From Selenomonadales bacterium (lineage in GTDB: Bacteria; Bacillota; UBA994): a DNA stretch of 64,000 nucleotides. Where the stretch lies: positions 6,281 to 70,280 of the forward strand of contig JAGXRZ010000001.1 of NCBI GenBank assembly GCA_018335585.1, read 5' to 3'. A program made the translations under genes and the position numbers. Below are positions 3,510 to 55,791 of this stretch, in pieces. Positions within the stretch are counted from its first letter, which is position 1. Every line of letters starts with the position of its first letter. The notes beneath the pieces were generated by a model. That model worked only from the letters and a program-made list of their open reading frames with translations. It searched no databases and had not been told where the DNA came from.

Positions 3510-3556
3510 GCGGCCTTCCTCCAATCACGGAAGTGGGAGAGCGTAGGTTGGTATAC

Positions 3557-4669: not shown

Positions 4670-6205
4670 TAATTTTCCTCCTTAGAAATGCACGGACTTG
4701 ACAGTTTTGCTGAACGGAAACATGATAACATATGTTGACCGAGTTGTCGCATGTGCGAATTGACTCGCTCTAGCATAGTATAATCTATCTTTGGCGCGAC
4801 ATCATAAAAGGAAGGGAGGCGGGAGGGCCACCATGAATACAGAGATCCTACATACCCCACGACGCATCCACTTCATCGGCATAGACGGCATCTCCATGAG
4901 CGCGCTGGCGTTAATCATGCAGAGGCGAGGCTGGCAGGTGTCCGGCTCAGACCTAAAACAGTCGGACCTCACGCGGCGCCTGATTAAGGACGGAGCAACG
5001 ATTTACCTAGGCCACGCCAAAGAGCATGTACTGGGTGCCGAAGTAGTGGTGTTTACTGCTGCCATAAAACCCGATAACCCAGAACTCGTGGCGGCGAGGG
5101 AGAGTAACGCCACCGTTCTTTCGCGTGCGGAGTTCCTTGGCACCCTAATGGGAGAAGCGCGGTACGGCATTGCCATAAGCGGCTCGCACGGCAAGACGAC
5201 GACCACGGCCTTAGTGGGCCTCTTGTGTGAACACGCGGGCCTTGACCCGACCGTATTAATAGGCGGCGAACTCGACGCGCTCGGCGGCAACGTCAAAGTA
5301 GGGAGCAGCGACTACTTTGTGGCAGAAGCCTGCGAATATGTCGAGACGTTTCTGGCTCTGCGCCCGATGCTCGGCGTGATTCTTAACATCGACGCCGACC
5401 ACCTCGACTATTTCGGCGACCTCGATCACGTCAAAGCCGCATTCCTGCGTTTTGCTAAGCTTATCCCAGCAGAGGGCCTCCTAGTCGCCTGCCGCGACGA
5501 CGCAAATGTGCGCGAAATCCTGGCTAACGCAAAGTGCCCAGTCGCCACCTATGGCCTCATGCAAGGTGCCGACTGGTGGGCGACAGAGATAGAACTCCGG
5601 CCCTCGGGCGAGAGCCTGTTTACGGTTTTCTTCCGCAATGCGCAACTTGGGCGCGTAACCTTAGGTGTACCCGGGCGGCACAACATACTAAACGCATTGG
5701 CCGGCCTCGCGGTAGGCAGCCACTTAGGCATTCCCTTTGCGACTATGGCCAAAACGCTACAGGCATTTCGCGGGACGCACCGACGCTTTCAGACTAAGGG
5801 TATGTTCGGCGGCGCGACGATTATTGACGACTACGCGCACCACCCCACCGAAATCCGCGCCACTCTAGCTGCCGCACGGGCGCTTGCCCCTAAACGCGTG
5901 ATTGTCGTGTTTCAACCGCACACCTACACCCGCACCAAAACTCTGCTTAACGAATTCGCAGTCTGCTTTGGTGACGCAGACGAGGTTATTATTACAGATA
6001 TTTACGCCGCGCGCGAGCGAAACACGCACGGCATAAGCTCAAAGGACTTAGTCGATAAAATTAAGGCCGAGCGGTCTTCGGTACATTACATCGGTTCTTT
6101 GGAAGACGCCACCGCTTTTCTTAGCACGCGCCTACGCGCAGGCGACCTGCTCCTGACGATGGGAGCAGGCGACGTGCATTACGTGGGGGAAGCGCTGTTG
6201 GCTCT

Positions 6206-6326
<121 letters not shown>

Positions 6327-6329
6327 ACG

Positions 6330-6719
6330 CTATAAGCCCTTAGCGCTCTTCCTCGCAAGGTAGTCCTTCACCGCTGCGTGCAATGCATCGGCGGCCAAGT
6401 TAGAACAGTGTAGCTTTAGGGGTGGCAGTCCGCCGAGGGACGTGGCCACCTCTTTGTTTGTCATGGCGAGCGCCTCTTCTACAGTTTTGCCGATAGCCAT
6501 CTCGGTAACGATGCTGCTTGTAGCTACAGCAGCTCCGCAGCCAAAGGTCTGGAACTTAATGTCGGTAATGCGCTCGTTTGCGTCAACCTTAATGTACATG
6601 CGCATAATGTCGCCGCAGCTGATGTTGCCTACCTCGCCCACGCCGTCGGCGTCTTCGATACTGCCGACGTTGCGCGGCCGCTGAAAGTGGTCCATTACTT
6701 TGTCGTTATACATACTCAT
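6330..6719 (-). CDS. iscU: Fe-S cluster assembly scaffold IscU/NifU N-terminal-domain protein
   Basis: GNISCGDIM, FQTFGCGAAVATSS and LHCSNLA give the three conserved scaffold cysteines. AGGAGG RBS. Confidence 0.9.
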   Translation of the reverse strand: MSMYNDKVMDHFQRPRNVGSIEDADGVGEVGNISCGDIMRMYIKVDANERITDIKFQTFGCGAAVATSSIVTEMAIGKTVEEALAMTNKEVATSLGGLPPLKLHCSNLAADALHAAVKDYLARKSAKGL

Positions 6720-6745
6720 TTATAAGTCCTCCTGTCAATTTGGGA

Positions 6746-7115
6746 GTGTCGCTTGTAGCTTGGGGAGGGAGCCGCCGGCCGCCAGGCGCCAGCCGCCAGC
6801 TTTATACGGAGAGCTTTTGGGCTTTAGGCGTTAGGCGTTAGGCGTTAGGCGTTAGGGGAACGGGCTATGAGCTTTGAGCTCTGAGCTGTGAGCGACGAGG
6901 GGTAATTGGCTCCTGGAACCAAGAGCCCCATCCTCCGCTGAGCACGAAGCACGAAGCACGCTCTCCTCTACTAGCAGCCAGGAGCTAGCAGCTAGGAGCG
7001 CTCCGTTCTACTGGGCACTGAGCACTGAGCACTAGGCACCTCCCTACCAGTAGCCAGGAGCTAGCAGCTAGGAGCCCCCCGTTCCCCTGGCGGCTGGCGG
7101 CTGGCGGCCGGTGGC
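6746..7115. repeat. Composite array of tandem heptamer blocks (array II, downstream of nifS)
   Basis: Blocks in order: GTCGCTT, GCCGCCA-type, GGCGTTA x4 (6819-6855), GAGCTnT x4 (6863-6892), GCACGAA x3, AGCCAGGAGCTAGC, GGGCACTGAGCAC (7008-7040), AGCCAGGAGC (7047-7075), CTGGCGG x3 (7087-7115). Confidence 0.9.
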
Positions 7116-7120
7116 ACCTC

Positions 7121-8275
7121 TCACCGGTACAGCGGCGACATCTTCCGCAGCCGCTCCACTATCGCGGGCATCACCGACAGCACATAGTCTACATCTGCCT
7201 CGGTGTTATCGATGCCTAAAGTAAGGCGAAGCGACCCGTGCGCCTGTTCGTGAGTTAAGCCCATGGCCAGGAGCACGTGCGATGGCTCAAGCGACCCCGA
7301 TGTGCAGGCCGAGCCGCTAGACACCGCTATCCCCTGCATATCGAGACTTAAAATCAAAGACTCGCCCTCTACGTAGCGCACGCTTACGTTTACGTTGCCG
7401 GGCAGGCGCTGTGTGGGGTGGCCGTTAAGCGTTACTTCGGGCAAGGCCAGAAGACCCGCGGCAAGCTTGTCGCGCAGCGCCGAGATTTTCGCCTGTCTTT
7501 CCGCCAAGTCAGCCGTCGCAAGCTCAAGCGCTTTCGCCAAGCCGATGATGCCGACGTGGTTCTCGGTGCCCGGCCTGTACTTGCGCTCTTGCCCGCCGCC
7601 GTGGTAAAGCGGCTTCACCCGCGTGCCTTTCTTAATGTAGAGCACGCCAATCCCCTTCGGGCCGTAGAACTTGTGCGCCGAGAAGGACATCATGTCTACG
7701 CCGAGGTCCTTTACGTCTACAGGAATACTCCCGACTGTCTGCACGGCGTCGGTATGAAAGCTTATCTTCTTGGCGCGAGCAATCGCCGCCATTTCTTTGA
7801 TTGGCTGAATCGTGCCCATCTCGTTGTTAGCGTGCATAATCGTGGCGAGAATGGTGTCGGGCCTCAGCGCGGCTTCAAAGTCTGCCACGCTAACCAAGCC
7901 ATGCTCGTCGACAGGCAGATAGGTAACCTCATAGCCCTGCGATTCGAGGAAATGGCACGTGTCGAGCACGGCGTGGTGTTCGATTTTACTCGTGATGATA
8001 TGTCGCCCATCCTTGTTGCGGGCAAGGGCTAAGCCTTGAATGGCAATATTGTCGGCTTCCGTGCCGCCCGACGTAAAGAATATCTCGCGTGGGTCGGCCC
8101 CTATGGCCGTAGCCACCTTTTCGCGTGCCTCGTCTACCGCTTTGCGCGAATCCCTCCCAAAGCTATGCACGCTCGACGGATTGCCAAAGTGGTTGTGAAA
8201 ATAAGGCAACATAGCCGCAATTACCTCCGGATGCACCGGGGTCGTAGCGGCATGGTCTAAGTAAACTCTTCTCAT
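7121..8275 (-). CDS. nifS: cysteine desulfurase (NifS/IscS type, PLP-dependent)
   Basis: MRRVYLDHAATTP N-terminus, SFSAHKFYGPKGIG PLP-lysine motif, SSGSACTSG active-site Cys loop. Confidence 0.9.
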   Translation of the reverse strand: MRRVYLDHAATTPVHPEVIAAMLPYFHNHFGNPSSVHSFGRDSRKAVDEAREKVATAIGADPREIFFTSGGTEADNIAIQGLALARNKDGRHIITSKIEHHAVLDTCHFLESQGYEVTYLPVDEHGLVSVADFEAALRPDTILATIMHANNEMGTIQPIKEMAAIARAKKISFHTDAVQTVGSIPVDVKDLGVDMMSFSAHKFYGPKGIGVLYIKKGTRVKPLYHGGGQERKYRPGTENHVGIIGLAKALELATADLAERQAKISALRDKLAAGLLALPEVTLNGHPTQRLPGNVNVSVRYVEGESLILSLDMQGIAVSSGSACTSGSLEPSHVLLAMGLTHEQAHGSLRLTLGIDNTEADVDYVLSVMPAIVERLRKMSPLYR

Positions 8276-8317
8276 GGTGAGAACCTCCTCTTGAGTTGGT
8301 TAGTAACTGAATGGAGG

Positions 8318-8556
8318 GCTGCTAGCTCCTGGCTGCTGGCTGCTGGTAGGGGGGTGCCTAGTGCTCAGTGCCCAGTAGAGCCGTGTCGCGGTAGTGCCCG
8401 GTTTCCCTTCTATCATAGCTCACAGCTCAAAGCTCACAGCCCTTAAAGCCTAACGCCTAGCGCCTAAAGCCTCAATGCTCACCGCTCACCGCTCAGAGCC
8501 CTCTCCCTCAAGCGACAAGCGACAAGCGACAAGCGACAATCTCCTGGCGCCTGGTG
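8318..8556. repeat. Composite heptamer array (array III, upstream of nifS), an inverted counterpart of array II
   Basis: Blocks 8318-8346, 8353-8378, 8414-8441 and 8441-8470 are reverse complements of 7047-7075, 7008-7040, 6863-6892 and 6819-6855, in nested antiparallel order. GCGACAA x4 and CTGGCGC blocks follow. Confidence 0.85.
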
Positions 8557-9058: not shown

Positions 9059-9991
9059 CTAGCGAGAGTTAGTGTCAAGAGGCAAACGCCCTCCCACGAC
9101 GCGGTCGCGCCCGGCCAGGTCTTGTCGCACGAACAGCTCGGTGAAGTGCGCCGAGGCAAGGAGTGACTTCACTTCGTCCGCTTGGGTACAGCCTATTTCA
9201 AGCAGTAACCAGCCGCCCGGGGTAAGAAAGCCAGGAGCCAGAGCGGCAATGCGCCGATAATACGCCAAGCCGTCCTCCCCGCCCTCTAGAGCTATACGCG
9301 GCTCACTTTGCACGTCCGATGCTAGTATTGGAATTTCTGCGCTTGGAATATACGGCGGATTCGCTGTAATCATGCTAAAGCGCATACCCTCTACCGGGGC
9401 AAACAGATCCCCTTGCCTAAACTGCACGCGGTCGCTTACCCCAAGGCGCGCGGCATTTTCTGCAGCCACGGCTAACGCCGCGTCCGATATATCCGTAAGA
9501 TAGACCTGAAGCTCCGGCACCTCCGCCGCTAGCGTCAGCCCGATACATCCGGAACCCGTACATAGATCAAGCAATACATTCTCCGCAGTGCCGCTAACGC
9601 ATTCCCCAGTGCGAAGTGCGAAGTGCGAAGTGCTAGTGAGTTTGCGTGTTCTGGCAAATTCACCCCTACACACCCGCAGCGCTTCCTCGACTAGCGTTTC
9701 CGTATCAGGGCGCGGAATAAGCACCGCAGGCGTCACGCGAAACTCTCGCCCAAAAAACTCTGTATAGCCTATTATGTACTGCAGCGGCACACCGAGCGCG
9801 CGCTGCCGCAAAGCTTCGCGGTAGCGCTCTACCACATGCTCGTCCACCTCGCGGCTAGGGTACGCCAGGAACGCGGCGCGACTTAGGTCAGTTACCGAGC
9901 GCAGCAGTAGCTCCGCCTGCCAGCAGGCATCGGCAACACCCGCTAAGCTAAGCTCGGCCGCGCCGGCATCCCACAGGGCTTTTACCTTCAC
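9059..9991 (-). CDS. prmC: peptide chain release factor N5-glutamine methyltransferase
   Basis: [14 protein letters not shown] motif and ITANPPYIP (NPPY). GTG start overlaps the prfA stop (GTGA). Confidence 0.9.
9608..9640. repeat. Heptamer array (GCGAAGT x3) lying in frame inside prmC
   Basis: agtgcgaagtgcgaagtgcgaagtgctagtgag encodes part of ..[12 protein letters not shown].., in the variable linker before the SAM-binding motif. Confidence 0.8.
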
Positions 9992-22522: not shown

Positions 22523-22693
22523 ATCTTGTACCACCTCGTGCGCGACGGTCTGTGGGCTGTGTGGGGCGCAGTTCATGAATTTGCATGAACACGCAAATTC
22601 ACTAGCACTTGGCACTTAGCACTTAGTAGAACGAGGGGGCCGCTGGCTCCTGGCTCCTGGTAGAGGGAGAGCACGCACGCTCTCCACAACGAC

Positions 22694-22745
22694 GTAGGGA
22701 CGTGCGTTTCGCACGTCCGCGGACGTGCCAGAGGCACGTCCCTAC
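22694..22745. repeat. 52-nt double-hairpin palindromic element (copy 2, inverted)
   Basis: gtagggacgtgcgtttcgcacgtccgcggacgtgccagaggcacgtccctac. Confidence 0.85.
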
Positions 22746-22798
22746 GCCCACTAGTCAAAGCCCTCCCGGCGGCCGGCGGCCGGCGCCTGGCGGCAGGT

Positions 22799-23482
22799 CT
22801 ATTGCCCTGCGTTCTGCTTGTTTTGCCTGCGCTGGCGCATTTGCCCGATGCGGCGCTGCGCGTTCTCACGGATAATGTCTAGCCCTTCGCCGGCTTCAAT
22901 GCGGGCGCGAATCTCTGCTGCGTTCGCGAGGACAGTCTCGGCATGCTTGATCATTCTTTCGGCTATCTGTGCGGCGTTCTTCTCGGTGGCGGCTAGGACG
23001 CGGGCCTGGCGCTCCTGCAGTGCGGCTAGGCGCTTCGCTGCTGCCTCTTGGTCGGTTGCGCTCTTAGCTCTTTCGGTAGCCTCGGCTAGTATACGTGCCT
23101 GAGCTGCCTTTAGGTCGGCCACAATTTTGGCGGGGAGGTTAGCCTTGTTGGCTAATGTCTCTTCTGCGCGAGCTACCATGGCATCGTGACGCTCTAGCAT
23201 GCGTGCCTTAAGCGCTTCCGGGTCAGTTTCGGCTAGTTCTTTGCACTTGGCAAAGCGTTCTTTAGCTTGGTCGGCAGCTTGGCCTACGCGCTTGCGTAAT
23301 TGGCCTGCTTGGGGAGGTGCATTTAGCCCAGCACGGATTTGGCCAAAGCCTAGACCCATGCCGTTTCCTGCGCCGGGGCGCGGCGCTTGGGGTTGTGGAG
23401 TGGCCGCTGCGGCTACTTGAGCTGCTAACGCCAGCACAACGACTAGTAGCAGTATTCTTTTCACTGACTTCACCTCTTTCAT
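22799..23482 (-). CDS. secreted Ala/Gln-rich helical protein, function unknown
   Basis: Signal peptide MKEVKSVKRILLLVVVLALAAQVAAA, then a long predicted helical region. Upstream of, and co-oriented with, the RR/HK pair. Confidence 0.5.
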   Translation of the reverse strand: MKEVKSVKRILLLVVVLALAAQVAAAATPQPQAPRPGAGNGMGLGFGQIRAGLNAPPQAGQLRKRVGQAADQAKERFAKCKELAETDPEALKARMLERHDAMVARAEETLANKANLPAKIVADLKAAQARILAEATERAKSATDQEAAAKRLAALQERQARVLAATEKNAAQIAERMIKHAETVLANAAEIRARIEAGEGLDIIRENAQRRIGQMRQRRQNKQNAGQ

Positions 23483-23583: not shown

Positions 23584-23645
23584 TGAAGCAAAAAGCTCCG
23601 TCCCTTTTGCTTCCGTCCGCGGACGTGCGGAACGCACGTCCCTAC
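23584..23645. repeat. REP-like hairpin fused to a half copy of the double-hairpin element
   Basis: tgaagcaaaaagctccgtcccttttgcttc, then gtccgcggacgtgcggaacgcacgtccctac. Confidence 0.8.
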
Positions 23646-23646
23646 A

Positions 23647-24612
23647 TCAACTACGCTTTAGGAAGGTTTTGCGTTCGAGGACGTGGGTGGCTTCTACCAG
23701 GCGGACGGTGCCAGTCTTAGAGCGCATGACAATCGAGTGCGTGGTGGCTTTAGGGCCGCTGTAGCGCACGCCGCGCAGGAGGTCGCCGTCGGTAATGCCG
23801 GTGGCGGCGAAAATTACGTCGGCGCTCTTGACTAAGTCGTTTTGCGTCAGCACGCCAGAAATATCTTTAAGGCCCATCGCGCGCGCACGCTCTACTTCTT
23901 GCTGACTGCCCGGCACGAGCCGCCCCTGCATCTCGCCGCCCAAACACTTAAGCGCCGCGGCCGCGAGCACACCCTCCGGTGCGCCGCCGATGCCTAACAG
24001 CACATCCACGCCGCTTTGTCCAAAAGCCGTAGCCACGGCCGGAGCCACGTCGCCGTCGCTAATTAGTTTAATGCGCGCCCCGGCTTCCCTTACCGCCCTG
24101 ATTATCGCGGCATGGCGCTCGCGGTCTAAAATAACGACAGTAAGGTCTTCTACTTTAACGCCTTTAGCCTGCGCTATACGTGCCAGATTATCGGCAATCG
24201 GCGCCTCTATATCTATGCAGCCCTTAGCTTCCGGCCCGACCGCAATCTTGTCCATATACATATCCGGCGCATGTAGGAGGCCTCCCTTTGGCGCAACGGC
24301 CAAAACGGAAATTGCGTTTGGCAGGCCCTTCGCCACCAAGCTTGTGCCTTCTAACGGGTCTACCGCAATATCTACCTCCGGAAATTGCGCACCGCCTACC
24401 TGCTCGCCGATATAGAGCATGGGCGCTTCGTCCATTTCGCCTTCGCCGATGACGACCGTGCCCTTAATCTGCACCGTGTCGAGCATAGCGCGCATGGCGT
24501 CTACCGCCGCTTTATCCGCAGCGTCCTTCATCCCGCGGCCCATTAAGCGGCCACTAGCGATAGCGGCAGCTTCGGTGACGCGGACGAATTCGAGAGCGAG
24601 TTCGCGTTCCAT
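23647..24612 (-). CDS. glpX: class II fructose-1,6-bisphosphatase
   Basis: [27 protein letters not shown].. N-terminus and [15 protein letters not shown] are typical GlpX. Start set to ATG 24612. Confidence 0.85.
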
Positions 24613-24637
24613 GGGGGTTCCTCCTTGCTTGGTGGAT

Positions 24638-25170
24638 TCGCACTTAGCACTTCGCACTTTGCACTTAGGAGAGTTGGAGCTTGGCTATGCGCAAGTAGAA
24701 AGTACCTATGGGAGCGTGGCGTGCCGCGCTACTCTGATCTGGCGTTTAGTAGCTTCTATTAATCCGCTCAGCATCGCTCCTACGGTGTTGCACGTATCGC
24801 GGAGGCGTTCTGACTGTTCTCCGGTAAGAAACCCTAGGTCTTTGGACAGCGTTACGAGACTTCTTACTTCCATCAGTGAGCCCTTCGAAACGTACAGAAA
24901 CCGTAACAGCTCCGGCCTGCTGTGTCTTCCGTGCCCTTCAGCAATATTCGACATTACCGACACCGCTGCACGCCTAACCTGAGACGTTATACCGTACTGC
25001 TCTTTTAGTGGGAACGAGTCAGTGAGGCGGTACACATCTCCTGCTAATCTCCGCGCTTCCTGCCACACCTTAAGTTGCTCAAACCCCGCCATCTCACTGC
25101 TCCTTCCTAGCAAGGTCGTTCCAGCATCGCGTCGTCATATTCTTCTACGAAGTGCCAAGTGCCAAGTGCT
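24638..25170 (-). other. IVS-like cassette 1: four-helix-bundle gene bracketed by inverted GCACTTn heptamer arms
   Basis: Arm 24638-24669 (tcgcacttagcacttcgcactttgcacttagg) against arm 25148-25170 (cgaagtgccaagtgccaagtgct), which is its reverse complement apart from the 7th positions. Confidence 0.6.
24706..25092 (-). CDS. four-helix-bundle protein (23S rRNA intervening-sequence protein / Avd-like family), copy 1
   Basis: QVRRAAVSVMSNIAEGHGR..LRFLYVSKGSLMEV signature. ATG 25092 behind GGAAGGAG. Confidence 0.8.
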   Translation of the reverse strand: MAGFEQLKVWQEARRLAGDVYRLTDSFPLKEQYGITSQVRRAAVSVMSNIAEGHGRHSRPELLRFLYVSKGSLMEVRSLVTLSKDLGFLTGEQSERLRDTCNTVGAMLSGLIEATKRQIRVARHATLP

Positions 25171-25174
25171 ACCC

Positions 25175-25819
25175 CTACTTACCCACCTTGCGCCAATCGT
25201 CAAGGAACCTCTCAATCCCCGCATCGGTAAGCGGGTGCCTCGCCATCTGCTTGATAACGCTAGCGGGGACGGTGGCGATGTGGGCGCCGGCGAGGGCGGC
25301 TTCGTGCACGTGCTGCGGGTGGCGGATAGAGGCGGCAATAATCTCGGTTGTGATGTTGTGGATGGCAAAGATTTCGGCGATGTCGCGTACGACCTGCATG
25401 CCGGGGGTGGAGATGTCGTCTAAGCGCCCGACAAAAGGCGAGACGAAGCTTGCACCGGCACGGGCGGCGAGCAGGGCTTGATTGGCGGTAAAGATAAGCG
25501 TGACGTTTGTCTTGATCCCCTCCTGCGCTAAGGTGTGCACGGCTTCTAGCCCGGCTTCGGTCATGGGGATTTTCACTACTACGTTTGGGGCGAGCGCCGC
25601 GAGCTCCCGCGCTTCTCTAAGCATACCCTCTACGTCTAGGCTAATGGCTTCGGCGCTGACAGGGCCGGGGCAAAGGGCGCAAATCTCTTTGATGGTCGGG
25701 AAAAACTCGCGGCCTTCTTTGGCGATAAGCGTGGGGTTCGTGGTTATGCCGGCGATAACGCCGAGTTTAACAGAGCGGCGAATCTCGTCTATGTTAGCGG
25801 TGTCGAGAAAGAATTTCAT
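25175..25819 (-). CDS. fsa: fructose-6-phosphate aldolase / TalC-type transaldolase
   Basis: [13 protein letters not shown].., VVKIPMT (Schiff-base Lys), SPFVGRLDD. Start set to ATG 25819. Confidence 0.85.
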
Positions 25820-25844
25820 GCGGAGTCCTCCTTGTGTGAATGTG

Positions 25845-26015
25845 GCTTGTCGCTTGTCGCTTGTCACTTGTCCCTTGGGGAAATGCGTCGGTCGCTTGTC
25901 CCTTGGGGAAATGCGTCGGTCGCTTGTCGCTTGTCGCTTGTCCCTTGTGGATAGCGGAAAGCGGACAGCGTAAAGCCTCCTCTCTGCTGGTGGCTGGCGC
26001 CTGGCGGCCGGCGGC
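25845..26015. repeat. Composite heptamer arrays (CTTGTCG, AGCGGAn, CTGGCGG) plus a 28-nt direct duplication
   Basis: cttgtcgcttgtcgcttgtc.., then cttgtcccttggggaaatgcgtcggtcg repeated at 25867-25894 and 25895-25922, then gatagcggaaagcggacagcg and ggtggctggcgcctggcggccggcggc. Confidence 0.85.
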
Positions 26016-26672
26016 TTAAAAAGGCATCACCGCGACGTCGCTGACGACTAGATTGGCCCCGGTTGCCGCTACCACTGCTTCAATCGTGGTATCTGGTGCC
26101 ACTTCTTTAAGCACCAATCCCATCGGCGTAACCTCAATCACGGCCATCTCGGTGACGATTAAGTCTACCTGCTCCTTGGCCGTGAGGGGCAGCGTGCACA
26201 GCGGCAGAATTTTCGGTGCGCCCTTGGCCGTGTGCTCCATCGCCACAATTACTTTGCGCGCGCCAACGGTTAAATCCATCGCCCCACCCATGCCGGGCAC
26301 AATTTTGCCGGGCACCATCCAGTTGGCGAGGTTGCCGCGCTCGTCTACCTCAAGCGCGCCGAGCACCGTCACATCGACGTGCCCGCCGCGGATAATGGCA
26401 AACGACATGGCGCTGTCAAAGCAGGCTCCGCCCGGGACAATCGTCACCGGCTGCCCACCGGCGTTTGTGGTGTCGCGGTCCTCCGTCCCTACATCCGGAG
26501 CCTTCCCCAACCCCACAAACCCATTCTCCGACTGGAACAACACGTCTACCCCGGGGGGCAAGAAGTTAGCTACCATGGTCGGCATGCCAATCCCTAAGTT
26601 CACTACCATACCGTCTGAAAGTTCAAGGCCGACGCGGCGCGCGATGCGCTCGCGTTTGATGTCTTTGCTCAT
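26016..26672 (-). CDS. atoA: 3-oxoacid CoA-transferase subunit B
   Basis: [14 protein letters not shown].., [15 protein letters not shown] motifs. Start set to ATG 26672. Confidence 0.85.
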
Positions 26673-26699
26673 GGACGTTCCTCCGTTTCGTGTGGGGAT

Positions 26700-26805
26700 G
26701 GTGGATTTCGCACTTTGCACTTGGCACTTAGCACTTAGTGGGCTCAAAGCTCAAAGCTCACGGCCCAAAGCTGGCGGCCGGTGGCTGGCGCCTGGCGGCT
26801 GGAAG
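26700..26805. repeat. Composite heptamer arrays (GCACTTn, GCTCAAA, CTGGCGG)
   Basis: tcgcactttgcacttggcacttagcacttag / ggctcaaagctcaaagctcacgg / ctggcggccggtggctggcgcctggcggctgg. Confidence 0.85.
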
Positions 26806-27462
26806 CTAACTCCCCGCTCGCACCACATACGTCACAAACAACCCCGGCGTCATTACTTCGTCGGGGTCGATAGCGCCGACGGGGACTATTTCTTCTGCTT
26901 CGGCGACAACAACCTTGGCCGCCATGGCCATCAGGGGGTTAAAGTTGCGCGCCGCGCGGCGGTAAACGAGGTTGCCCTTCTCGTCGGCCTTGTATGCTTT
27001 AATCAACGCAAAGTCGGCGTGAAGCGGCAGTTCGAGCAGGTACTCTTTGCCTTCTATCGTCAGTTTCTGCTTGCCTTCTTCTACTACGGTGCCTACCCCG
27101 GTGGGGGTGAGGACTCCGCCTAGACCCGCGCCTGCCGCGCGCACCTGCTCGGCGAGTGTACCCTGCGGCACAAGCACGACCTCGGTTTCGCCTGAGTGCA
27201 TCTGCCTGCCGGTCTCGGGGTTCGTGCCGATATGCGAGGCCATGGCCTTCTTTACGCGCTTGGCGACAATCAGCTTACCTATGCCCCGCTCAGGAAAGCC
27301 GGTGTCGTTGCCGATGACGGTTAAGTCTTTGCTGCCCTTCGCCAGCACCTCATCTACTAGCCCTTCCGGCGTCCCTACGCACAAGAAGCCGCCGATCATT
27401 ACTGACATGCCGTCCTGCAGCGAAGCGAGGGCATGTGAGGGTGATGTAACTTTACTCCTCAT
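26806..27462 (-). CDS. atoD: 3-oxoacid CoA-transferase subunit A
   Basis: [10 protein letters not shown] and the GIG/ETEV region are typical of CoA-transferase A subunits. Adjacent to subunit B. Confidence 0.85.
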
Positions 27463-27892
27463 TTGTGACCATCCTCCTGTTGGATTTGCTGCCAGCCGCC
27501 AGCCGCCGGGCGCCAGCCCTAGGAACGACCGTCGGAGGCGAAGCTAACGCTTTAAGTAGTCCATTTAGCATTCTGGAGACCGTGCGCGCTTCCGCGTCAA
27601 GCCTACGATATTCCTGCTCGGGGAGCAAGCCGAGATCTTTAGCCAGCAATAGCAGGTACTCTAGTTCACCACAAGAAGCGCGAGATATGTAAAGAAACCT
27701 AGCGTAGTCTGCGTCGGATCCCCTGTTCTTCCCCTCCGCAATGTTGGTCGGCACGGACACAGCAGCGCGCCTTATCTGCGAGGTCAAGCCGTATAACTCG
27801 TCGCGCGGGAAGTTCGCTGTAATCTTGTAGGCGTCAAGAACAAATGCGTGCGCCTTCTGCCACACTAGTAGCGTTTCGTGTCCTCCCGTCAT
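27452..27892 (-). CDS. four-helix-bundle protein (23S rRNA IVS / Avd-like family), copy 2
   Basis: [37 protein letters not shown]. Its ATG overlaps the kce stop (ATGA). The C-terminal ~30 aa are read through a heptamer arm and overlap the atoD start by 11 nt. Confidence 0.8.
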
Positions 27893-27930
27893 ACACTACT
27901 CCTGGAGGCTGGCGGCTGGCGCCTGGCGGC
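27488..27930 (-). other. IVS-like cassette 2: four-helix-bundle gene bracketed by inverted CTGGCGG-type arms
   Basis: Arm 27488-27519 (gctgccagccgccagccgccgggcgccagccc) against arm 27904-27930 (ggaggctggcggctggcgcctggcggc). Confidence 0.6.
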
Positions 27931-28737
27931 TATCCCAAGCATCTCCCTCGCCTCAGTTGGCGTCGCTATTTCGCGGCCGCACTCGCGGGCAATGCGCACT
28001 ATGCGCGCCACAAGTTCGGCGTTGCTCTTGGCGAGCACACCTTTTGAGTAATAGATGTTGTCCTCAAAGCCAACGCGCACGTGCCCGCCCAGGACAATGG
28101 CCATTACGGCTAGCGGCAGCTCGGCGCGCCCGATGCCGGCGACGGTCCAAGTGGCACCCGCAGGCAGGCTTTCCACCAAGTGCATTAGGTTCTTGGCCGT
28201 ACCGGGCATGGCACCGGGCACACCTAGCACCAAGTCAAAGTGGAGCGGTTCACTTAGCAGGCCTTTTTTAAGCAGAGCAAGTGCGTTTTGAATCATGCCT
28301 GTTTCAAGGACCTCGACCTCGGGTTTAACGCCGTGCTCCTGCAGCGCTTTTGCGATGCGCTCCATGTACTGCGGCGAGTTCATAAAGACATCGTCGCCAA
28401 AGTTGCAGGTGCCCGCGGTAAGCGTGGCCATCTCGGGCCTCAGGGTAATCGGCGCGATGCGCTCCTCGATTTTCGCCGTCACCGCCCCGCCGGTAGAGAG
28501 CTGCACGATTAGATCGCACTTCTCGCGCATCAGGCGCATCGTCTCGCGGAAAATCTCCGGGTCCTGTGAAGGCTTACCGTCTTTGTCGCGCACGTGAATA
28601 TGTGCTATTGACGCACCGGCTTGCCAAGAGCGATACGCCTCCTCGGCGATCTCCGCCGGAGTAAGGGGTAGGTATGGGGTTTGCGCGCGGGTAACTTCTG
28701 CGCCGACTAAAGCGGCGGTGATGATGAGTTTAGTCAT
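27889..28737 (-). CDS. kce: 3-keto-5-aminohexanoate cleavage enzyme (BKACE/DUF849 family)
   Basis: MTKLIITAALVGAEVTRAQTPYLPLTPAEIAEEA..ASIAHIHVRD is the DUF849 TIM-barrel N-terminus. Neighbours are kal and atoDA. Confidence 0.75.
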   Translation of the reverse strand: MTKLIITAALVGAEVTRAQTPYLPLTPAEIAEEAYRSWQAGASIAHIHVRDKDGKPSQDPEIFRETMRLMREKCDLIVQLSTGGAVTAKIEERIAPITLRPEMATLTAGTCNFGDDVFMNSPQYMERIAKALQEHGVKPEVEVLETGMIQNALALLKKGLLSEPLHFDLVLGVPGAMPGTAKNLMHLVESLPAGATWTVAGIGRAELPLAVMAIVLGGHVRVGFEDNIYYSKGVLAKSNAELVARIVRIARECGREIATPTEAREMLGIAARRQPPASRSSV

Positions 28738-29177
28738 GTGGGAAACCTCCTTCTGGGGCTTTCCGCTGTCCGCTTTCCGCTTAATTGGTTCGTGCGAACG
28801 CTGCGTTGCTCGCTCAGCGTCCTCCTAACAGCTGTATTCATCTTACTAATCATCGAGGCGATGTCATCTAGGTCACTTTCAATTTTGCGATACGTGTCGG
28901 GACCCCAATATCCCAAGTCCTTACTTAATAAGGTTAGGTAGCGCACCTCAAGCAAAGATGCCCTGGCAATAGCAAGGAACCGCAGGAACTCCAAGTCGCT
29001 TCCCCGTCCCTTCCCTTCACAGATGTTGGTTGGTATCGACACAGCCGCCCTTCGTATCTGACTCACAATCCCAAACTGCTCGGCCTTGGGGAAACTCTCG
29101 GTGGCTCTATATACCTGCATCACCAAACCATGCGCTCTAGACAAAACCTCGAGTCTGTTCATCAACTCAAAACCCAC
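28734..29177 (-). CDS. four-helix-bundle protein (23S rRNA IVS / Avd-like family), copy 3
   Basis: [37 protein letters not shown]. Its stop overlaps the kce ATG (ATGA). GTG 29177 behind AGGGGGA. Confidence 0.8.
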   Translation of the reverse strand: MGFELMNRLEVLSRAHGLVMQVYRATESFPKAEQFGIVSQIRRAAVSIPTNICEGKGRGSDLEFLRFLAIARASLLEVRYLTLLSKDLGYWGPDTYRKIESDLDDIASMISKMNTAVRRTLSEQRSVRTNQLSGKRTAESPRRRFPT

Positions 29178-29246
29178 GTGGTTTCCCCCTATTCATCCTA
29201 CAGCTCGGCACCCTCCAGATCAGCGGATAGCGGAAAGCGGATAGCC
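28757..29246 (-). other. IVS-like cassette 3: four-helix-bundle gene bracketed by inverted GCGGAnA arms
   Basis: Arm 28757-28783 (ggctttccgctgtccgctttccgctta) against arm 29221-29246 (cagcggatagcggaaagcggatagcc). Confidence 0.6.
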
Positions 29247-29248
29247 AC

Positions 29249-29638
29249 CTACACTCTCCCCCGCTGCTTCGCAGCGGGAACGACACACGTCCCACTCGCG
29301 CGGCACACTAACAGCGGTTCGGGCAGCACTTCGGCGGCAGAAGGGTTGGCGGGGTCGTTAAGCGCGCGGATTACTTTGTAGGCGGCGAACGTCATCTTGC
29401 GACTGGTATTGCCTACCTTAGTAATCTCCCCGTGCGCTTCGATATAGTCTCCGGCGTAGGTTGGAGCCTTAAACTCCACGCTGTCGTAGGCCACAAACAG
29501 CCCCTCGTCTCCGTCGTGGCGGATGAGGAGCTCGGTCGCTAGGTCGCCAAACAGCGCCATTATGCGCGCGCCGTCCACTAAGTTGCCGCCGTAATGCGCG
29601 TCGTGATTGCTCATGCGCAGTCTAATCATGGTCTTCAT
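29249..29638 (-). CDS. kal: hotdog-fold protein, probable 3-aminobutyryl-CoA ammonia-lyase
   Basis: 129 aa and hotdog-like (..[27 protein letters not shown]..). Size and its position next to kce and atoDA match the lysine-fermentation kal gene. Confidence 0.55.
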
Positions 29639-29700: not shown

Positions 29701-29763
29701 TGTTTGTAATGGAGAGTGTGGTCGCTTGTCGTTAGTCGCTCGTCGCTCGGGGAGCGCACTGCT

Positions 29764-46740: not shown

Positions 46741-47189
46741 GGAGGATAACCAGAGCCTGATTGACCTTATTGCACTGATTAGGAGTTGACCTCAGGGGCC
46801 TGCATAGGGGCCTATATAAGCGTCTCTCCTTCTAATCAGGGTAATCAGTGAAATCAGGCTCTAAACTACGGGGGTTACTCAGGATAACCAGAGCCTGATT
46901 AGCCTTATTGCCCTGATTAGGAGTTGAGCACAGGGGCCTTCACCTCAGGGGCCTTCATAGGGGCCTATACAAGCGTCTCTCCTTCCAAATCAGGGTAATC
47001 AGTGAAATCAGGCTCTAAATTACCTGGGATACTCAGGATAACCAGAGCCTGATTAGCCTTATTGCCCTGATTAGGAGTTGACCTCAGGGGCTTTCACCTC
47101 AGGGGCCTTCATAGGGGCCTTTATAAGCGTCTCTCCTTCCAATCAGGGTAATCAGTGAAATCAGGCTCTAAACTACCGGGGATACTCAG
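46741..47189. repeat. Tandem island hairpin units (~153-bp period, ~2.9 copies) with no cargo between them
   Basis: Units at 46834-46918, 46988-47072 and 47141-47189 (truncated), plus a solitary right arm starting at 46744. Confidence 0.9.
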
Positions 47190-47245
47190 ATCCTAGCGCA
47201 GTTGCCTGCCTTGCTAGGGCCTATTTATCATGCTATTGTAGTATT

Positions 47246-47626
47246 GTGGAAGAGCATTGGGGGTGGCAATTTGCTATGTGGTCAACCCATATCCTAGACA
47301 GCGCGCGTGCCAAGAAAAAGCAAGCGCGGGAGCAACTTCGCGTTCGATTGCTAGACGCTGCCATGCAAGCCCTAGATAAGCTGTCCCTGTTGCTTCAGTT
47401 TGATAAAGCCTATGTATTTGGTTCCGTGGCAAGGCAGCAGGGGTTCGACGAGCTTTCGGATTTGGATATAGCCTTCGCAGGGCTGCGGGACGAAGATTAT
47501 TTTACCGCTGCGGCTTTTCTCTCAAGAGAAGTGGGCATAGACGAAGTGGATGTCGTGCAATTAGAGGGACATCGCCTGGCTAGTACAATAGTAAAGGAAG
47601 GGATACCGTGGAAAAGGAAAGGGTAG
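47246..47626 (+). CDS. nucleotidyltransferase-domain protein (MNT-type antitoxin)
   Basis: VFGSVARQ..SDLDIAF (GS..DxD Pol-beta NTase motif). Alternative ATG at 47276. Confidence 0.7.
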   Translation: MEEHWGWQFAMWSTHILDSARAKKKQAREQLRVRLLDAAMQALDKLSLLLQFDKAYVFGSVARQQGFDELSDLDIAFAGLRDEDYFTAAAFLSREVGIDEVDVVQLEGHRLASTIVKEGIPWKRKG

Positions 47627-48090
47627 CCTTACTACAGGCAGAACTGCAGTCACGCACCCAAGAGATTGAGAACATATACTTGAAGATTGACGAACGTAAA
47701 GGGCGGAGGGGCAAAATAGCCGTCGAAAGCCTTGCCTATCAGCTCCACAACCTGTACTGCGCATTTGAAGACCTCTTTAAGGCCGTATCTGTTGCCTTTG
47801 AAAACAACATCGACCACAAGTCGCGCTATCACACCGAACTGCTAAAAAGAATGACCTACACGATTGAAGGCGTAAGGCCCGCTCTCCTGACGCAGGATAG
47901 TTACATGTTGCTAGATAATCTGCGTGCGTTCAGGCATGTGTTCCGGCACGCCTATTCCTATGACCTAGATGAACGAAAGGTGCGAATTGTCTTAGAAGAT
48001 GTGGCCAAACTGCGGGCGTTGTACGCTAGGGATGTGCAGGCCTTTTTGCAGGGACTAGGGAGTCGCAATAGCAGTGACAACGGCAGGTAA
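47608..48090 (+). CDS. HEPN-like putative RNase toxin partner of MNT
   Basis: RHVFRH (Rx4H) motif in a helical 160-aa protein. GTG start overlaps the MNT gene by 19 nt. Confidence 0.5.
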   Translation: MEKERVALLQAELQSRTQEIENIYLKIDERKGRRGKIAVESLAYQLHNLYCAFEDLFKAVSVAFENNIDHKSRYHTELLKRMTYTIEGVRPALLTQDSYMLLDNLRAFRHVFRHAYSYDLDERKVRIVLEDVAKLRALYARDVQAFLQGLGSRNSSDNGR

Positions 48091-48201
48091 TCAGTGAAAT
48101 CAGGCTCTAAATTACCGGAGATCCTCAGGATAACCAGAGCCTGATTGACCTTACTGCCCTGATTAGGAGTTGAGCACAGGGGCCTTTGAATCAGGCTCTA
48201 A
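48088..48201. repeat. Island hairpin unit (left arm 5-prime truncated, starts in the HEPN stop codon)
   Basis: taatcagtgaaatcaggctctaaattaccggagatcctcaggataaccagagcctgattgaccttactgccctgattaggagttgagcacagggg.. Confidence 0.85.
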
Positions 48202-48261
48202 CACGCACTGGCACATGCTTTCGCTTATGTGTTAGCGATGAACCAAAATTGAGCACTAATC

Positions 48262-48336
48262 CTACCTCAAGACCGTTGGCGTGCGCGTGCACTTAAGGAA
48301 AAACTCCCGCCTAAGGCAGGAGTATAAGCGCATGTT
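48262..48336 (+). pseudogene. remnant of the pmm 3-prime end with an internal deletion
   Basis: accgttggcgtgcgcgtgca|cttaaggaaaaactcccgcctaaggcaggagtata matches pmm 45176-45196 joined to 45262-45298. Confidence 0.7.
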
Positions 48337-48427
48337 CAGCGTCGGTCGTTAGTCGCTGCGGCAAGCGGACAGCCTCCCAGCAGCTAGTGTAAAGCAAAAG
48401 GCTCCGTCCCCGGTGCTTCCCGGTGCT

Positions 48428-48646
48428 TTACCTCGCAATTAGCTCAGTTCTAGCGTAGCGCACACCCGTCTTACGGAGGACACCGGCATCTCTTAGCCTG
48501 TCAATGCGTCTTTTTACGTCATCGTCATCAAATCCGAGCTGTTTTTTCTTCACCTCAATGAGGATCTGGTCGATGGTGAACGGCTCACTCTTTGATAAAA
48601 CAATTTGCACAAGCTCGTATATGGGCGACTCTTTAACTGGAACCAT
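48428..48646 (-). CDS. small winged-helix-like protein coupled to the HD protein
   Basis: 72 aa. Its ATG follows the HD gene TGA directly (TGAATG). ..IDRLRDAGVLRKTG.. resembles a wHTH wing. Confidence 0.45.
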   Translation of the reverse strand: MVPVKESPIYELVQIVLSKSEPFTIDQILIEVKKKQLGFDDDDVKRRIDRLRDAGVLRKTGVRYARTELIAR

Positions 48647-50488
48647 TCATTCTCCTCCTTTTGCTCCATTATATCCGGGCACAAAGTGTTTTGACAGACC
48701 TTTTCCTAATTCTTCTCCTATTTGTTTTCTGAGTGAAGTGAGATTTTTATGTTCCCCGGTGAAGTACAGAAAAAACACTGGGAACAGAGACCAGTTCCTG
48801 TCCAGTTCTGCATTAATTGAAGACACCTCTGACAACGGCACCGCCTCTCCTTGGCAGTGCACATATGGGTCTAACACGGATGCCTTATTCTTGTTAAACT
48901 GCACTAGGTACTTACCTAGGACTGCGCGAGCAGCATGGTGGACAATCTCTTGGAACTTACTGCTATCGTCTACATCCATAAGTGCCTTCGCAGCCCCTAA
49001 GAAGAATCCCCCGCTTTTTACCTTCTTAGCCTGCTCAAAGGATGCCCTAAGCGGTTCCGGCAGCCACTCGCTGGCTGCGTTCATGGCCTGCACGCAGGCC
49101 TGGTCTATTTGACGAAAATCATTAGTCCGTTTGACAAGCGAGCTATAGCGTTTCTGATTAGATAGGAGTTCTTCTAGCTGGAACTTCAACTCGTCCTGAC
49201 CATTGTGGTACTCCTCGTAGTAATGGCGGCGCAGCACGGTAAGCATCCAAGCGTCGTCCCACTGCACAAGGTCATCAAAATACACCTTGTCAGCATCACG
49301 GTCACCATTAGCCACTGCTCGCCACAGCCCAGAAATATCCATGGGAAGCGCGCGGCCCTTTTCGGTTAGAACGGCACCTTGGTCCATTAAATACCTGGTC
49401 GCGAGGCCTGTTACAGTTTGTGTCAAGAGGGCGTCTGTCTTCCTTACTCTGTGGTGGAAGACTACATACTTGTAGAGAAACCACCGTAGCTTGAAAAAAT
49501 CCTCTATCGCGCTTAGCGCTCGAATGTCAGGGCAGAAGTAGAACCTTTCTTCAACTTGCATAAGACGCATAGATGTCAATAGGCGTTCATCGGCTGCCCT
49601 GCTCTTCATAAAGCCTGAATTCTCAAGGTCTCTTACAACATAGTCTAGTCTATCACCGTCCATGGGGCCGGAGATAATGCCATGTATATCAGCGCACAGA
49701 AAATCACCTTCGTTCTTCCCTGTTTCTTTTAGGATATCCAAACATAAACTATGTACGAGTTTATAGAGCATTTGGCAGCACGCTTCTTCGCGGTTAGGGT
49801 GCACATTTAGCTGAGCCTTGCGCGCTACATGCTCTAATAGCCTATCAGCAATCCTAATACCTAACGCCTCATGCAGTTCATCTGTGCCATTAACACCCAA
49901 GCTGTTGCTAAACTCCGCAACCCGCGTGGTCATCGTTGGGGCACACGACAGGCCGTGGTTAATGTCGTTTAGTGCCAACTCTGTGACGTGGCTGAATGGC
50001 GGGTGGCCGATATCATGTAACAGAGCTGCGCATCTGACAGCTTGGTATAGGATAACGTAAACCCAGACCTGCTCCTGCTTGAGCGAGGGCCGGTTAGTAA
50101 TGTACATCCTGTCACAATCGGCAATCACAGATGGGTGCCTCATAAGCTCTGTAATGTGGTCGCCTAACTTCGTCCGCCATATCTCCGCCTGCCCCGTACT
50201 AAGGTAGCCTCTTATTCGCTGCTCGACTTTACCAAGAAAATCATCCTTGGTCGTAGGTACTGCGTTCTCCACTGCATACCGCAAAATCCGGCTACAGAGG
50301 TGCATGGCCCCAATCGAGTGCGTAAAGCGAGAGGTTTTGTTCGCCGGATATGTTAAGTAGGCCGTAGAATTCTGTAAGACGGAATGCAGACGGTTAAAAG
50401 CCTGCGTCGATATTATGAGCTTCTCCATTTGACTCAACTGGACTGAGCCATGGACAGAGTCTGCTATCTGGAATATCTTGTCGTTCAT
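48647..50488 (-). CDS. HD-domain phosphohydrolase of the dGTPase/SAMHD1-like type
   Basis: FTHSIGAMH .. LLHDIGHPPFSH .. DGDRLDYVVRD gives the H..HD..D metal motif set. ATG 50488 behind GAAGGAG. AT-rich gene. Confidence 0.7.
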   Translation of the reverse strand: MNDKIFQIADSVHGSVQLSQMEKLIISTQAFNRLHSVLQNSTAYLTYPANKTSRFTHSIGAMHLCSRILRYAVENAVPTTKDDFLGKVEQRIRGYLSTGQAEIWRTKLGDHITELMRHPSVIADCDRMYITNRPSLKQEQVWVYVILYQAVRCAALLHDIGHPPFSHVTELALNDINHGLSCAPTMTTRVAEFSNSLGVNGTDELHEALGIRIADRLLEHVARKAQLNVHPNREEACCQMLYKLVHSLCLDILKETGKNEGDFLCADIHGIISGPMDGDRLDYVVRDLENSGFMKSRAADERLLTSMRLMQVEERFYFCPDIRALSAIEDFFKLRWFLYKYVVFHHRVRKTDALLTQTVTGLATRYLMDQGAVLTEKGRALPMDISGLWRAVANGDRDADKVYFDDLVQWDDAWMLTVLRRHYYEEYHNGQDELKFQLEELLSNQKRYSSLVKRTNDFRQIDQACVQAMNAASEWLPEPLRASFEQAKKVKSGGFFLGAAKALMDVDDSSKFQEIVHHAARAVLGKYLVQFNKNKASVLDPYVHCQGEAVPLSEVSSINAELDRNWSLFPVFFLYFTGEHKNLTSLRKQIGEELGKGLSKHFVPGYNGAKGGE

Positions 50489-50630
50489 ACTTACCGCTCC
50501 TTCGTGACCCATCGCCTACTACCGTGGCTGCTCAGGCCAAATGTAGACCTTTAAGGATACATTCTCCACAAACGAGAGCATTTCCTGCACCCCCGCGCGT
50601 GAAGCAAAAGCTCTGTCCCCAGTGCTTTCG

Positions 50631-50873: not shown

Positions 50874-50970
50874 GCATAGATTTAGAATCTGTGCGTCCCG
50901 GACAGCTGCACTTTTATGCTCTATTTTGATACACTTTGAAGCATAAACGTACAAACGCGAGGTGACTGGC

Positions 50971-55776: not shown

Positions 55777-55791
55777 TTCTCATGTGTCTAC

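Follow-up and report, generated by a model that had tools for sequence, protein, structure and literature searches.

Intervening sequences (IVSs) in ribosomal RNA (rRNA) have been without an explanation since 1990, and the open reading frames (ORFs) found in some of them belong to PF05635/TIGR02436, a very large family of 'hypothetical' proteins. Here we describe three genes of this four-helix-bundle (4HB) family, each lying between inverted heptamer arms, in a lysine-fermentation operon on a 64-kb stretch of contig JAGXRZ010000001.1 from a Selenomonadales bacterium (the whole stretch being referred to as the window). Throughout, 4HB denotes a PF05635/TIGR02436 four-helix-bundle gene, L-numbers denote the comparison loci fetched, and other coordinates are those of the window. 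All source data are metagenome assemblies.

ORF-bearing rRNA IVSs, such as those of Leptospira, Coxiella burnetii and Brucella (S23p), carry their ORF in a loop closed by a stem of paired terminal inverted repeats, and are excised from the rRNA precursor by RNase III without religation. Their arms are tandem heptamers with one free position and a strain-variable number of units, the ORF is prone to deletion, and their distribution is sporadic with signs of horizontal transfer. In C. burnetii the IVS has two or three heptamer units depending on the strain and its terminal inverted repeats pair into a 28-bp stem, which RNase III cuts in the middle, as mapped by rapid amplification of cDNA ends, while the S23p ORF is decaying (PMC4990558). 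Short ORF-less rRNA IVSs (Salmonella, Yersinia and Campylobacter, helices 25/45) are extended stem-loops within rRNA helices. Zhang et al. (2013) also describe 23S_rRNA_IVP genes that lie within cas operons.

Heptamer arrays are also known as microsatellites. The cyanobacterial short tandemly repeated repetitive (STRR) sequences, the Nostoc GGGGAYT repeats and the Xanthomonas GGGAATC repeats are, like the arrays of the window, tandem heptanucleotides in spacers and often form inverted pairs; they are transcribed, and the pairs are often convergent (PMC4692102). Xanthomonas carries approximately 186 GGGAATC arrays, 70-75 convergent pairs among them, to which no function was assigned and in whose description 4HB genes are unmentioned; one array lies on the start codon of XCC0516 (Rehm et al., 2015, including its supplementary table, PMC4692102). 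The STRR and Xanthomonas genomes each have one dominant unit, whereas the window has approximately ten unit types, and the papers on these repeats draw no connection between arrays and 4HB genes. In our literature searches no paper was found linking non-rRNA 4HB genes with heptamer arms.

Inverted heptamer arms in the window and across the 4HB family

The window 4HB genes are the ORFs of modular cassettes, whose ORF and arm architecture is homologous to that of the ORF-bearing rRNA IVS and which are oriented with the host transcript. The association of 4HB genes with inverted heptamer arms is family-wide and not specific to the window. Cassettes of this type in protein-coding operons instead of rRNA, and the family-wide arm rule, were not found described. 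In the order of transcription, the operon and its cassettes are as follows.

23647..29638, minus strand: host operon kal-kce-atoD-atoA-fsa-glpX (Pfam scan), compact and cassette-free in more distant relatives
29638-29249, minus strand: kal, first gene in minus-strand order, with 4HB-3 next
29221..29245, minus strand: cassette 3, 5' arm, TnTCCGC x3 (period-7 array, fold)
28734..29177, minus strand: cassette 3, 4HB-3 ORF, 147 amino acids as called in public assemblies, running through its own 3' arm and overlapping the start of kce by ATGA
28758..28783, minus strand: cassette 3, 3' arm, GCGGAnA x3 (period-7 array, fold)
28737-27889, minus strand: kce, between 4HB-3 and 4HB-2
27901..27931, minus strand: cassette 2, 5' arm, GCCGCCA type, within an 11-codon kce tail that is absent from the kce of L283
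27452..27892, minus strand: cassette 2, 4HB-2 ORF, 146 amino acids, with an ATGA overlap with the kce stop, running through its own 3' arm and overlapping atoD by 11 nt
27487..27519, minus strand: cassette 2, 3' arm, CTGGCGG type (period-7 array, pairing, fold)
27462-26806, minus strand: atoD, after 4HB-2
approximately 26672-26016, minus strand: atoA, after atoD
approximately 25819-25175, minus strand: fsa, before 4HB-1
25146..25172, minus strand: cassette 1, 5' arm, GCACTTn x3 (period-7 array; unit number and free position differ among strains)
24706..25092, minus strand: cassette 1, 4HB-1 ORF, 128 amino acids (PF05635 E 1e-37, TIGR02436)
24637..24668, minus strand: cassette 1, 3' arm, AAGTGCn x4 (period-7 array, pairing, fold)
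approximately 24612-23647, minus strand: glpX, after 4HB-1

The cassettes thus occupy the kal|kce (4HB-3), kce|atoD (4HB-2) and fsa|glpX (4HB-1) slots, and the window has no further 4HB gene. The three proteins are 42-45% identical pairwise and score 118-138 bits with PF05635 (cut-off 33.8; E 1e-34 to 1e-40) and 111-134 bits with TIGR02436 (cut-off 24). Zhang (2013) and Lin (2006) give the family motif as G..R...S...N..E; the window proteins match it, with G34, R41, S45, N49 and E52 (4HB-1 numbering) invariant in all three copies inside GxxSQxRRAAVSxxxNIxEG. In sequence they also match the crystallised XCC0516 (PDB 2gsc, E = 4e-20), a homopentameric toroid of four-helix bundles. No Rfam match was found anywhere in the window, and the cassettes are thus not inside a 16S or 23S rRNA gene.

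The arm units belong to families A (AAGTGCn), B (CTGGCGG) and C (GCGGAnA), and families D (GCGACAA) and F (GAGCTnT) also occur in the operon. Along the transcript the order of arrays and genes is D+, kal, C-, 4HB-3, C+, kce, B-, 4HB-2, B+, atoD, and then B- F+ A+, atoA, B- C- D+ D+, fsa, A-, 4HB-1, A+, glpX. The two arms are complementary over 28 nt at 86% in cassette 1, 37 nt at 78% in cassette 2 and about 25 nt in cassette 3. When each cassette is folded in isolation, the arms close it in both the minimum free energy and the centroid structure, as blocks of 6 bp with single mismatches between them. From kce the reading frame extends by 11 codons into the cassette 2 5' arm, and the frames of 4HB-2 and 4HB-3 continue across the 3' arm of their own cassette.

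For each gene, the upstream flank of 200 nt was compared with the downstream flank of equal length, and the highest-scoring inverted match without gaps was taken, a score of at least 14 counting as arms; RNAduplex on the same 200-nt flanks did not discriminate, every pair giving about -110 kcal/mol. The three window cassettes score 17.5-18, compared with a median of 8 for the other approximately 59 genes of the window and a highest score of 15 among shifted controls (n=286). Bracketing among the approximately 62 window genes is confined to the three 4HB genes, to iscS and to a pair of genes flanked by non-heptamer palindromes. The sequence-only reading had placed three 4HB genes in this operon, each between inverted tandem-heptamer arms with a different unit per copy, and the gene order, the profile matches, the located arrays and the control scores bear this out. 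The ATGA overlaps that it reported at 28734-28737 and 27889-27892 and the 11-nt overlap of 4HB-2 with atoD are all present in the sequence.

The arm test was extended to 80 loci encoding relatives of the window proteins. This sample, in which the kin of the three window proteins are over-represented, comes from Acidobacteriota, Planctomycetota, Bacillota, Bacteroidota, Verrucomicrobiota, Pseudomonadota and other phyla. Arms were found in 64/79 4HB loci, compared with 1/286 position-shifted controls and 4/197 other genes of these loci. The 64/79 count is pseudo-replicated, 20 of the loci being one syntenic Acidobacteria locus; recounted as independent loci, 34/41 have arms, against approximately 2% of neighbouring genes. 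Outside the window, in other phyla, heptamer arrays occupy a background of 1.9% of 200-nt windows. The best period of the arms is 7 in 58/64 cases and 8 in five, and the median arm is 30 nt, with a unit that varies by locus (GTCGTTn, GGTCTTA, GGCTTCC, AGGGGTT, TTAGCAG, TTTTTAG and others). Within one cassette the two arms match each other: in 42 cases an arm's best match among 79 is its own partner, and only 6.8% of off-diagonal pairs score at least 14. The 3' arm begins a median of 4 nt past the stop codon, and the 5' arm ends approximately 60 nt ahead of the domain.

The upstream gene is co-oriented with the 4HB gene in 38/41 independent loci. Housekeeping operons host the cassettes, at junctions such as DUF1385|prfA, livM|livG and dGTPase|dnaG, and no rRNA was found in the twenty 4HB relative loci that were scanned for it. 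On viral contigs from IMG/VR, arms flank 20/32 4HB copies. The converse, that arrays imply 4HB genes, was rejected: a 4HB gene lies within 400 nt for only 4/120 array-selected loci (among the matches listed), and the association is one-way. In 16/120 of these loci (among the matches listed) the inverted partner lies 41-215 nt downstream, too near to enclose a 4HB gene.

The arms have a polarity. Across L001-L080 the 5' arm has more G than C in 58/64 cassettes and more T than A in 48/64, and this reads the same on both DNA strands. Among the matches listed for L161-L280, the inverted partner lies downstream for all 20 GACAGA arrays that have one. By exception, the C-rich arm comes first in cassettes 2 and 3 of the window.

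A locus scan using the Coxiella IVS heptamers returned, among the matches listed, two loci (L261 and L274, from a Propionivibrio metagenome-assembled genome) that are 23S rRNA genes with a 4HB ORF between inverted heptamer arms. This IVS lies approximately 1.16 kb from the 5' end, in helix 45, and its arms read CAGAGGA CAGAAGA CAGATGA CAGATGA and TCTGTCC TCTGTCC TCTGTCT TCTGTCC; the arm consensus in L274 is CAGAnGA x4-5 and TCnTCTG x4-5. The likeness to rRNA IVSs drawn by the sequence-only reading is thereby matched by a 23S gene with the same topology. The window cassettes resemble the ORF-bearing rRNA IVSs in the ORF family, in an ORF looped out by a stem of terminal inverted repeats, in tandem-heptamer arms with one free position and strain-variable unit number, and in a deletion-prone ORF, sporadic distribution and signs of horizontal transfer. 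They differ in that the host transcript is a protein-coding operon, that three cassettes share one operon and that in two of them the arms lie partly or wholly inside translated ORFs.

The CAGAnGA heptamers of the betaproteobacterial Propionivibrio IVS (L274, 6110-6560, and L261) match the published 21-nt GACAGAT repeat string of the C. burnetii IVS, and the AGAAGA of the latter, which resembles a Shine-Dalgarno sequence, is present in the Propionivibrio IVS too. This heptamer match fits a putative horizontal transfer of this IVS type.

Presence, loss and probable exchange at the operon slots

Orthologous operons show that the cassettes are not a fixed part of the gene cluster. In L082, whose kce is 76% identical, kal-kce-atoD-atoA-fsa-glpX is compact and cassette-free, and in the 40 kce loci examined (L081-L120) no 4HB gene was found beside kce, L081 excepted. 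A comparison with orthologous operons, as the sequence-only reading had proposed, shows L082-L120 to be empty of cassettes.

The closest genome in the species set is NPL-UPA2 GPS119 (L081), with a kce 86% identical and with cassettes 3 and 2 built from the same unit families. In L081 (1-350 and 1120-1540) both 4HB ORFs have in-frame deletions (13 and 33 amino acids) and the RRAAVS..NIAEG core is gone. The ORFs are still open, both 3' arms and the 5' arm of cassette 2 are present, and the contig begins inside 4HB-3. Between the window and L081 the ratio of non-synonymous to synonymous substitutions (dN/dS) is 0.16 and 0.25 for the aligned parts of the 4HB genes, compared with 0.05-0.10 for neighbouring genes. 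The 4HB protein is under purifying selection, yet dispensable in L081.

Public assemblies contain the window haplotype at 100% identity as well as a co-occurring second haplotype (L283/L284), which is 89-94% identical to the window at the nucleotide level in genes. L283/L284 are without cassette 2: homology stops at 27931, the outer edge of its 5' arm, and restarts at the atoD start. The kce product has 271 amino acids in L283, with no arm-encoded tail, and 282 in the window. The kce|atoD slot of L283 holds instead an ORF-less hairpin of AATCATG units (3526-3590), which, like the ORF-less heptamer hairpin at 6204-6331 of the window, is comparable to the short rRNA IVSs as a stem-loop.

Slot 3 of L283 contains a different 4HB gene, 40-50% identical to all three window copies, with arms of GAGCTnT / AnAGCTC type. 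We considered whether slot 3 holds orthologues with a concerted compensatory change of the arms (TnTCCGC/GCGGAnA versus TnTGAGC/GCTCAnA); a swap is at least as likely, given that the 4HB proteins are 40-45% identical inside flanks that are approximately 89% identical at the nucleotide level. All relatives of the L283 slot-3 protein sit at this one slot of the operon: in L290 (76% identical) the unit family is unchanged, in L289 (61%) the units are GTCATAA, and in L291 (55%) the arms are longer repeats that are not heptamers. In L291 (2660-3530) the 4HB cassette lies in an atoA|thiolase slot, with tandem units of approximately 100 nt (GGGTCAGCTACTGAATGCATG...) and an inverted partner downstream.

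Cassette 1 shows the opposite pattern to its surroundings. Between the window and L283 it differs at 1/540 nt, while fsa differs at 28/645 and glpX at 28/966, a contrast of 1/540 with 56/1611 (Fisher p = 1.5e-6; p = 3e-4 and 0.04 in other strains). The identical tract is cassette 1 plus or minus approximately 55 nt. The 4HB-1 ORF has 0-1 nt differences among strains with 1-5% flank divergence, and one strain has a fourth unit in the 5' arm. This near-identity in diverged flanks points to unit-wise recombination between co-occurring strains, as judged from the sequence comparison. Other operon spacers also vary between haplotypes in the arrays that they hold. The suggestion in the sequence-only reading of a mobile IVS-like cassette is in keeping with the empty orthologous operons, the slot polymorphism, the swap breakpoints at arm edges and the near-identical cassette 1. 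Long syntenic residence shows that exchange events are rare.

Proposed RNA processing and competing explanations

The explanation that we favour, with a probability of roughly 55%, is that these are IVS-type cassettes resident in operon spacers, with a predicted RNA stem and RNase III processing. Each unit spans approximately 0.45-0.55 kb. It opens with a 5' arm composed of 3-5 tandem heptamers, continues with a short leader, which bears a ribosome-binding site, and with the 4HB ORF, and closes with a 3' arm that starts at or near the stop codon and is the 5' arm's inverted complement. Placed in spacers of a putatively co-transcribed operon, the cassettes would be transcribed along with it, and the arms are predicted to pair into an imperfect stem of 20-35 bp, in 6-bp blocks with one free position per unit, looping out the ORF. 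RNase III cuts the stem of the 23S IVS that has the same ORF family and arm type, so the cassette stem is probably also an RNase III substrate, and by this analogy the cassette RNA would be cut from the polycistronic message between cistrons. In two cassettes, read-through ORFs with overlapping stop and start codons may let ribosomes melt the stem and continue to the next cistron, an accommodation that would keep downstream translation going.

Over longer times the cassette would be a semi-autonomous resident with long vertical inheritance, its ORF fast-evolving under purifying selection. Its fates may include loss, decay to an ORF-less hairpin, a swap at the same slot and the exchange of the unit between strains, with the arrays changing through unit gain and loss. 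Arm complementarity is kept while the sequence drifts, which implies either selection for pairing or copying between arms by template switching and slippage. No excess of terminator-like sites was found inside the kal-glpX operon.

Several observations weigh against this explanation. Among the arm mismatches there is no sense-strand excess of G.U (91 G.U versus 118 A.C), so that RNA-level and DNA-level pairing are indistinguishable, and even in the absence of selection, arm complementarity could persist by DNA template switching and slippage. Compared with shuffled sequences, the folds of whole cassettes show no clear gain in stability (z = -0.7 to -2.7). Cassettes 2 and 3 have one or both arms in translated ORFs, where ribosomes would compete with the stem. 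Inverted heptamer arms are carried by iscS as well, which has no 4HB gene, and 4HB genes are rare beside arrays selected as such. Long vertical residence (in the Acidobacteria loci and the operon clade) together with purifying selection fits a host-useful gene and a parasite equally well.

Heptamer families elsewhere in the operon also supply competing partners for the cassette arms. ORF-less arrays of families A, B and C pair with the cassette arms equally well or better, for example 25953-25977 with 28757-28781 at 96%, and when duplexes are compared across the window, just 1/6 arms pairs best with its flanking partner. The same heptamer families recur as ORF-less operon arrays, and the stems are therefore not insulated from cross-pairing; the proposal of the sequence-only reading that distinct stems serve to avoid it does not hold here.

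The nearest competitor, which overlaps with our preferred explanation and which we consider rather unlikely as a full account, is that the cassettes are DNA-level elements. The inverted arms would then be terminal inverted repeats or hairpin/cruciform recombination sites through which cassettes are inserted, deleted and exchanged, the 4HB protein would possibly be a mobility factor, and RNA pairing would be incidental. The coincidence of indel and swap breakpoints with arm edges, the exchange of cassette 1 as a unit with at most approximately 60 nt of co-converted flank, the 4HB copies on viral contigs and the lack of a sense-strand G.U signature in the arms all speak for it. So does the strand-symmetric polarity, with a G/T-rich arm first in 58/64 cassettes and in 20/20 paired GACAGA arrays (among the matches listed), and Ralph and McClelland, as quoted in PMC4990558, proposed that the IVS ORF encodes a mobility function.

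Miniature inverted-repeat transposable element (MITE)/transposon pairs and the homing genes of introns and inteins resemble the cassettes in that full and ORF-less forms coexist, that presence or absence has precise borders, and that a near-identical element lies within diverged flanks with short co-converted tracts. The cassettes differ from MITE and homing systems in that no transposase or homing endonuclease was found, no target-site duplication was seen, and residence is mostly vertical. To our knowledge the 4HB fold has no recombinase or nuclease activity, which counts against a DNA-level element. Pfam, TIGR, PADLOC and PHROG searches found no transposase domain in the cassettes, whose only ORF is the 4HB gene; beyond 4HB/Avd, neither the PADLOC nor the Pfam search gave a match. 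By eye, no target-site duplication is visible at the arm edges, and the slot without cassette 2 holds another hairpin. The cassette is retained at syntenic loci whose flanks have diverged by 15-28%, which makes movement a rare event, and a purely DNA-level element would not be expected to show such strong co-orientation with its upstream gene (38/41).

It is less probable again that the cassettes are domesticated operon parts, the stems and 4HB protein being kept to tune the expression of neighbouring cistrons through segmental mRNA stability, processing, shielding of a C/A-rich stretch from Rho or translational coupling. Such a role would suit the finding that relatives with 4HB identities as low as 55-61% have 4HB genes at these slots too (kal|kce, kce|atoD, after atoA or fsa), the dN/dS of 0.16-0.25, the 4HB-kce ATGA coupling conserved in the window, L081, L283 and L290, and the long-lived cassette between DUF1385 and prfA in Acidobacteria. 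Against it, the orthologous operons L082-L120 are cassette-free (e.g. L082 at 76% kce identity), one slot has no 4HB gene in a relative at approximately 90-94% nucleotide identity, and the L081 copies are without the family core motif. The host operons are also functionally unrelated, which fits a passenger better than a dedicated regulator.

Two further explanations are contradicted by the data and are very improbable. The first holds that the genome is simply rich in STRR-like heptamer microsatellites, so that 4HB genes lie between opposite arrays by chance. The window does contain approximately 36 heptamer arrays of approximately ten unit types, nearly all in spacers or at ORF ends; many lie in spacers without 4HB genes and one even inside prmC, iscS is bracketed too, and same-family arrays of opposite orientation all pair well. 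However, 3/3 4HB genes are bracketed compared with 3/approximately 59 other window genes, and across the family arms occur in 34/41 independent loci against 2% of neighbouring genes, where arrays are rare (1.9% background). The second would make the 4HBs the Avd accessory proteins of a diversity-generating retroelement for which the repeats serve as template or target structures. It draws on a shared four-helix-bundle fold family and remote sequence similarity to bAvd (PF22296 27-31 bits, NF033474 26-30 bits, PHROG 3206), and is contradicted by scores below the curated cut-offs (40 for PF22296 and 80 for NF033474) and by a context in which all three 4HBs have metabolic neighbours (kal, kce, atoD, fsa, glpX) with no adjacent reverse transcriptase and no template or variable repeat. 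In the Pfam scan of the operon and of ten ORFs at 43.9-58.7 kb, the remaining window being unscanned, no reverse transcriptase was found. We know of no Avd with flanking heptamer arms.

Beyond the locus, a wider reading is possible, though tentative. A PF05635 gene with inverted heptamer arms may represent a widespread undescribed class of element, an 'IVS cassette', that would colonise operon spacers, prophages and rRNA helices across phyla and undergo homing-like gene conversion between strains. Loss of the ORF would leave STRR-like repeats and the Xanthomonas GGGAATC pairs, for which decades have brought no account of their origin, and the 4HB protein would act on the heptamer duplex. If one module of ORF and arms does sit between cistrons in many phyla, RNase III cutting, arm binding and movement become testable outside the ribosome. 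It would also suggest where the intergenic heptamer repeats seen in Xanthomonas, in cyanobacteria and in the window lineage may have come from, and in annotation it would account for the 4HB genes wedged in cas, acc, liv and dnaG operons and for odd repeat-encoded tails of neighbouring ORFs.

Other repeats in the window

Heptamer arrays without a 4HB gene lie in the operon and elsewhere in the window.

29728..29749, minus strand: ORF-less array upstream of kal
26707..26802, minus strand: ORF-less arrays in the atoD|atoA spacer (AAGTGCn, GAGCTTT and GCCGCCA types), alternative partners for cassette arms
25840..26015, minus strand: atoA|fsa spacer, with ORF-less arrays of GCGACAA, TCCGCTn and GCCGCCA types and a tandem repeat of 28 nt
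6204..8542, minus strand: heptamer arrays around iscU, iscS and iscR, no 4HB gene; iscS 7121-8275 lies within nested inverted arrays

The array content of the atoD|atoA spacer differs in L283. In the atoA|fsa spacer, 25863-25933 holds a 28-nt unit (GTCGCTTGTCCCTTGGGGAAATGCGTCG) x2.5 that is absent from L283 and L285.

The housekeeping gene iscS has nested composite arms (6807-7084 / 8309-8491) of 3-4 different heptamer arrays, which are complementary over 68 nt at 87%, 52 nt at 77% and 30 nt at 90%. An extra inverted pair (6768-6799 / 7087-7118) encloses the downstream iscS arm. The contigs returned in a look-up of iscU share the gene arrangement of the window.

Host ORFs that enter arrays gain repeat-encoded C-terminal tails, as at the 3' ends of kce (27889-27931) and murC (6204-6236), the latter ending in ...LSAQCPVPSA. 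An AGTGCGA x3-4 array at 9605-9636 lies in frame inside prmC (9059-9991, minus strand) and encodes residues between the N-terminal and methyltransferase domains.

GC-rich palindromes resembling repetitive extragenic palindromic elements (GACGTAGGGACGTGCG...) occur at 22691-22746 and 23614-23648, where 35 nt are 94% complementary. They flank an Ala-rich secreted ORF (22799-23482), and in both L283 and L285 the atoA|fsa spacer carries this palindrome as an insertion.

A defence/toxin-antitoxin island at 46789-58700 includes MNT and HepT (47246-48090), AbiEi/AbiEii (50962-52451), Uma2 (53195-53917), an IrrE-like M78 peptidase (54577-55776) and AAA_21 (57429-58676). It is interspersed with repeat copies of approximately 150 nt that hold AATCAGGG 9-mers and AGGGGCCTTCA units.

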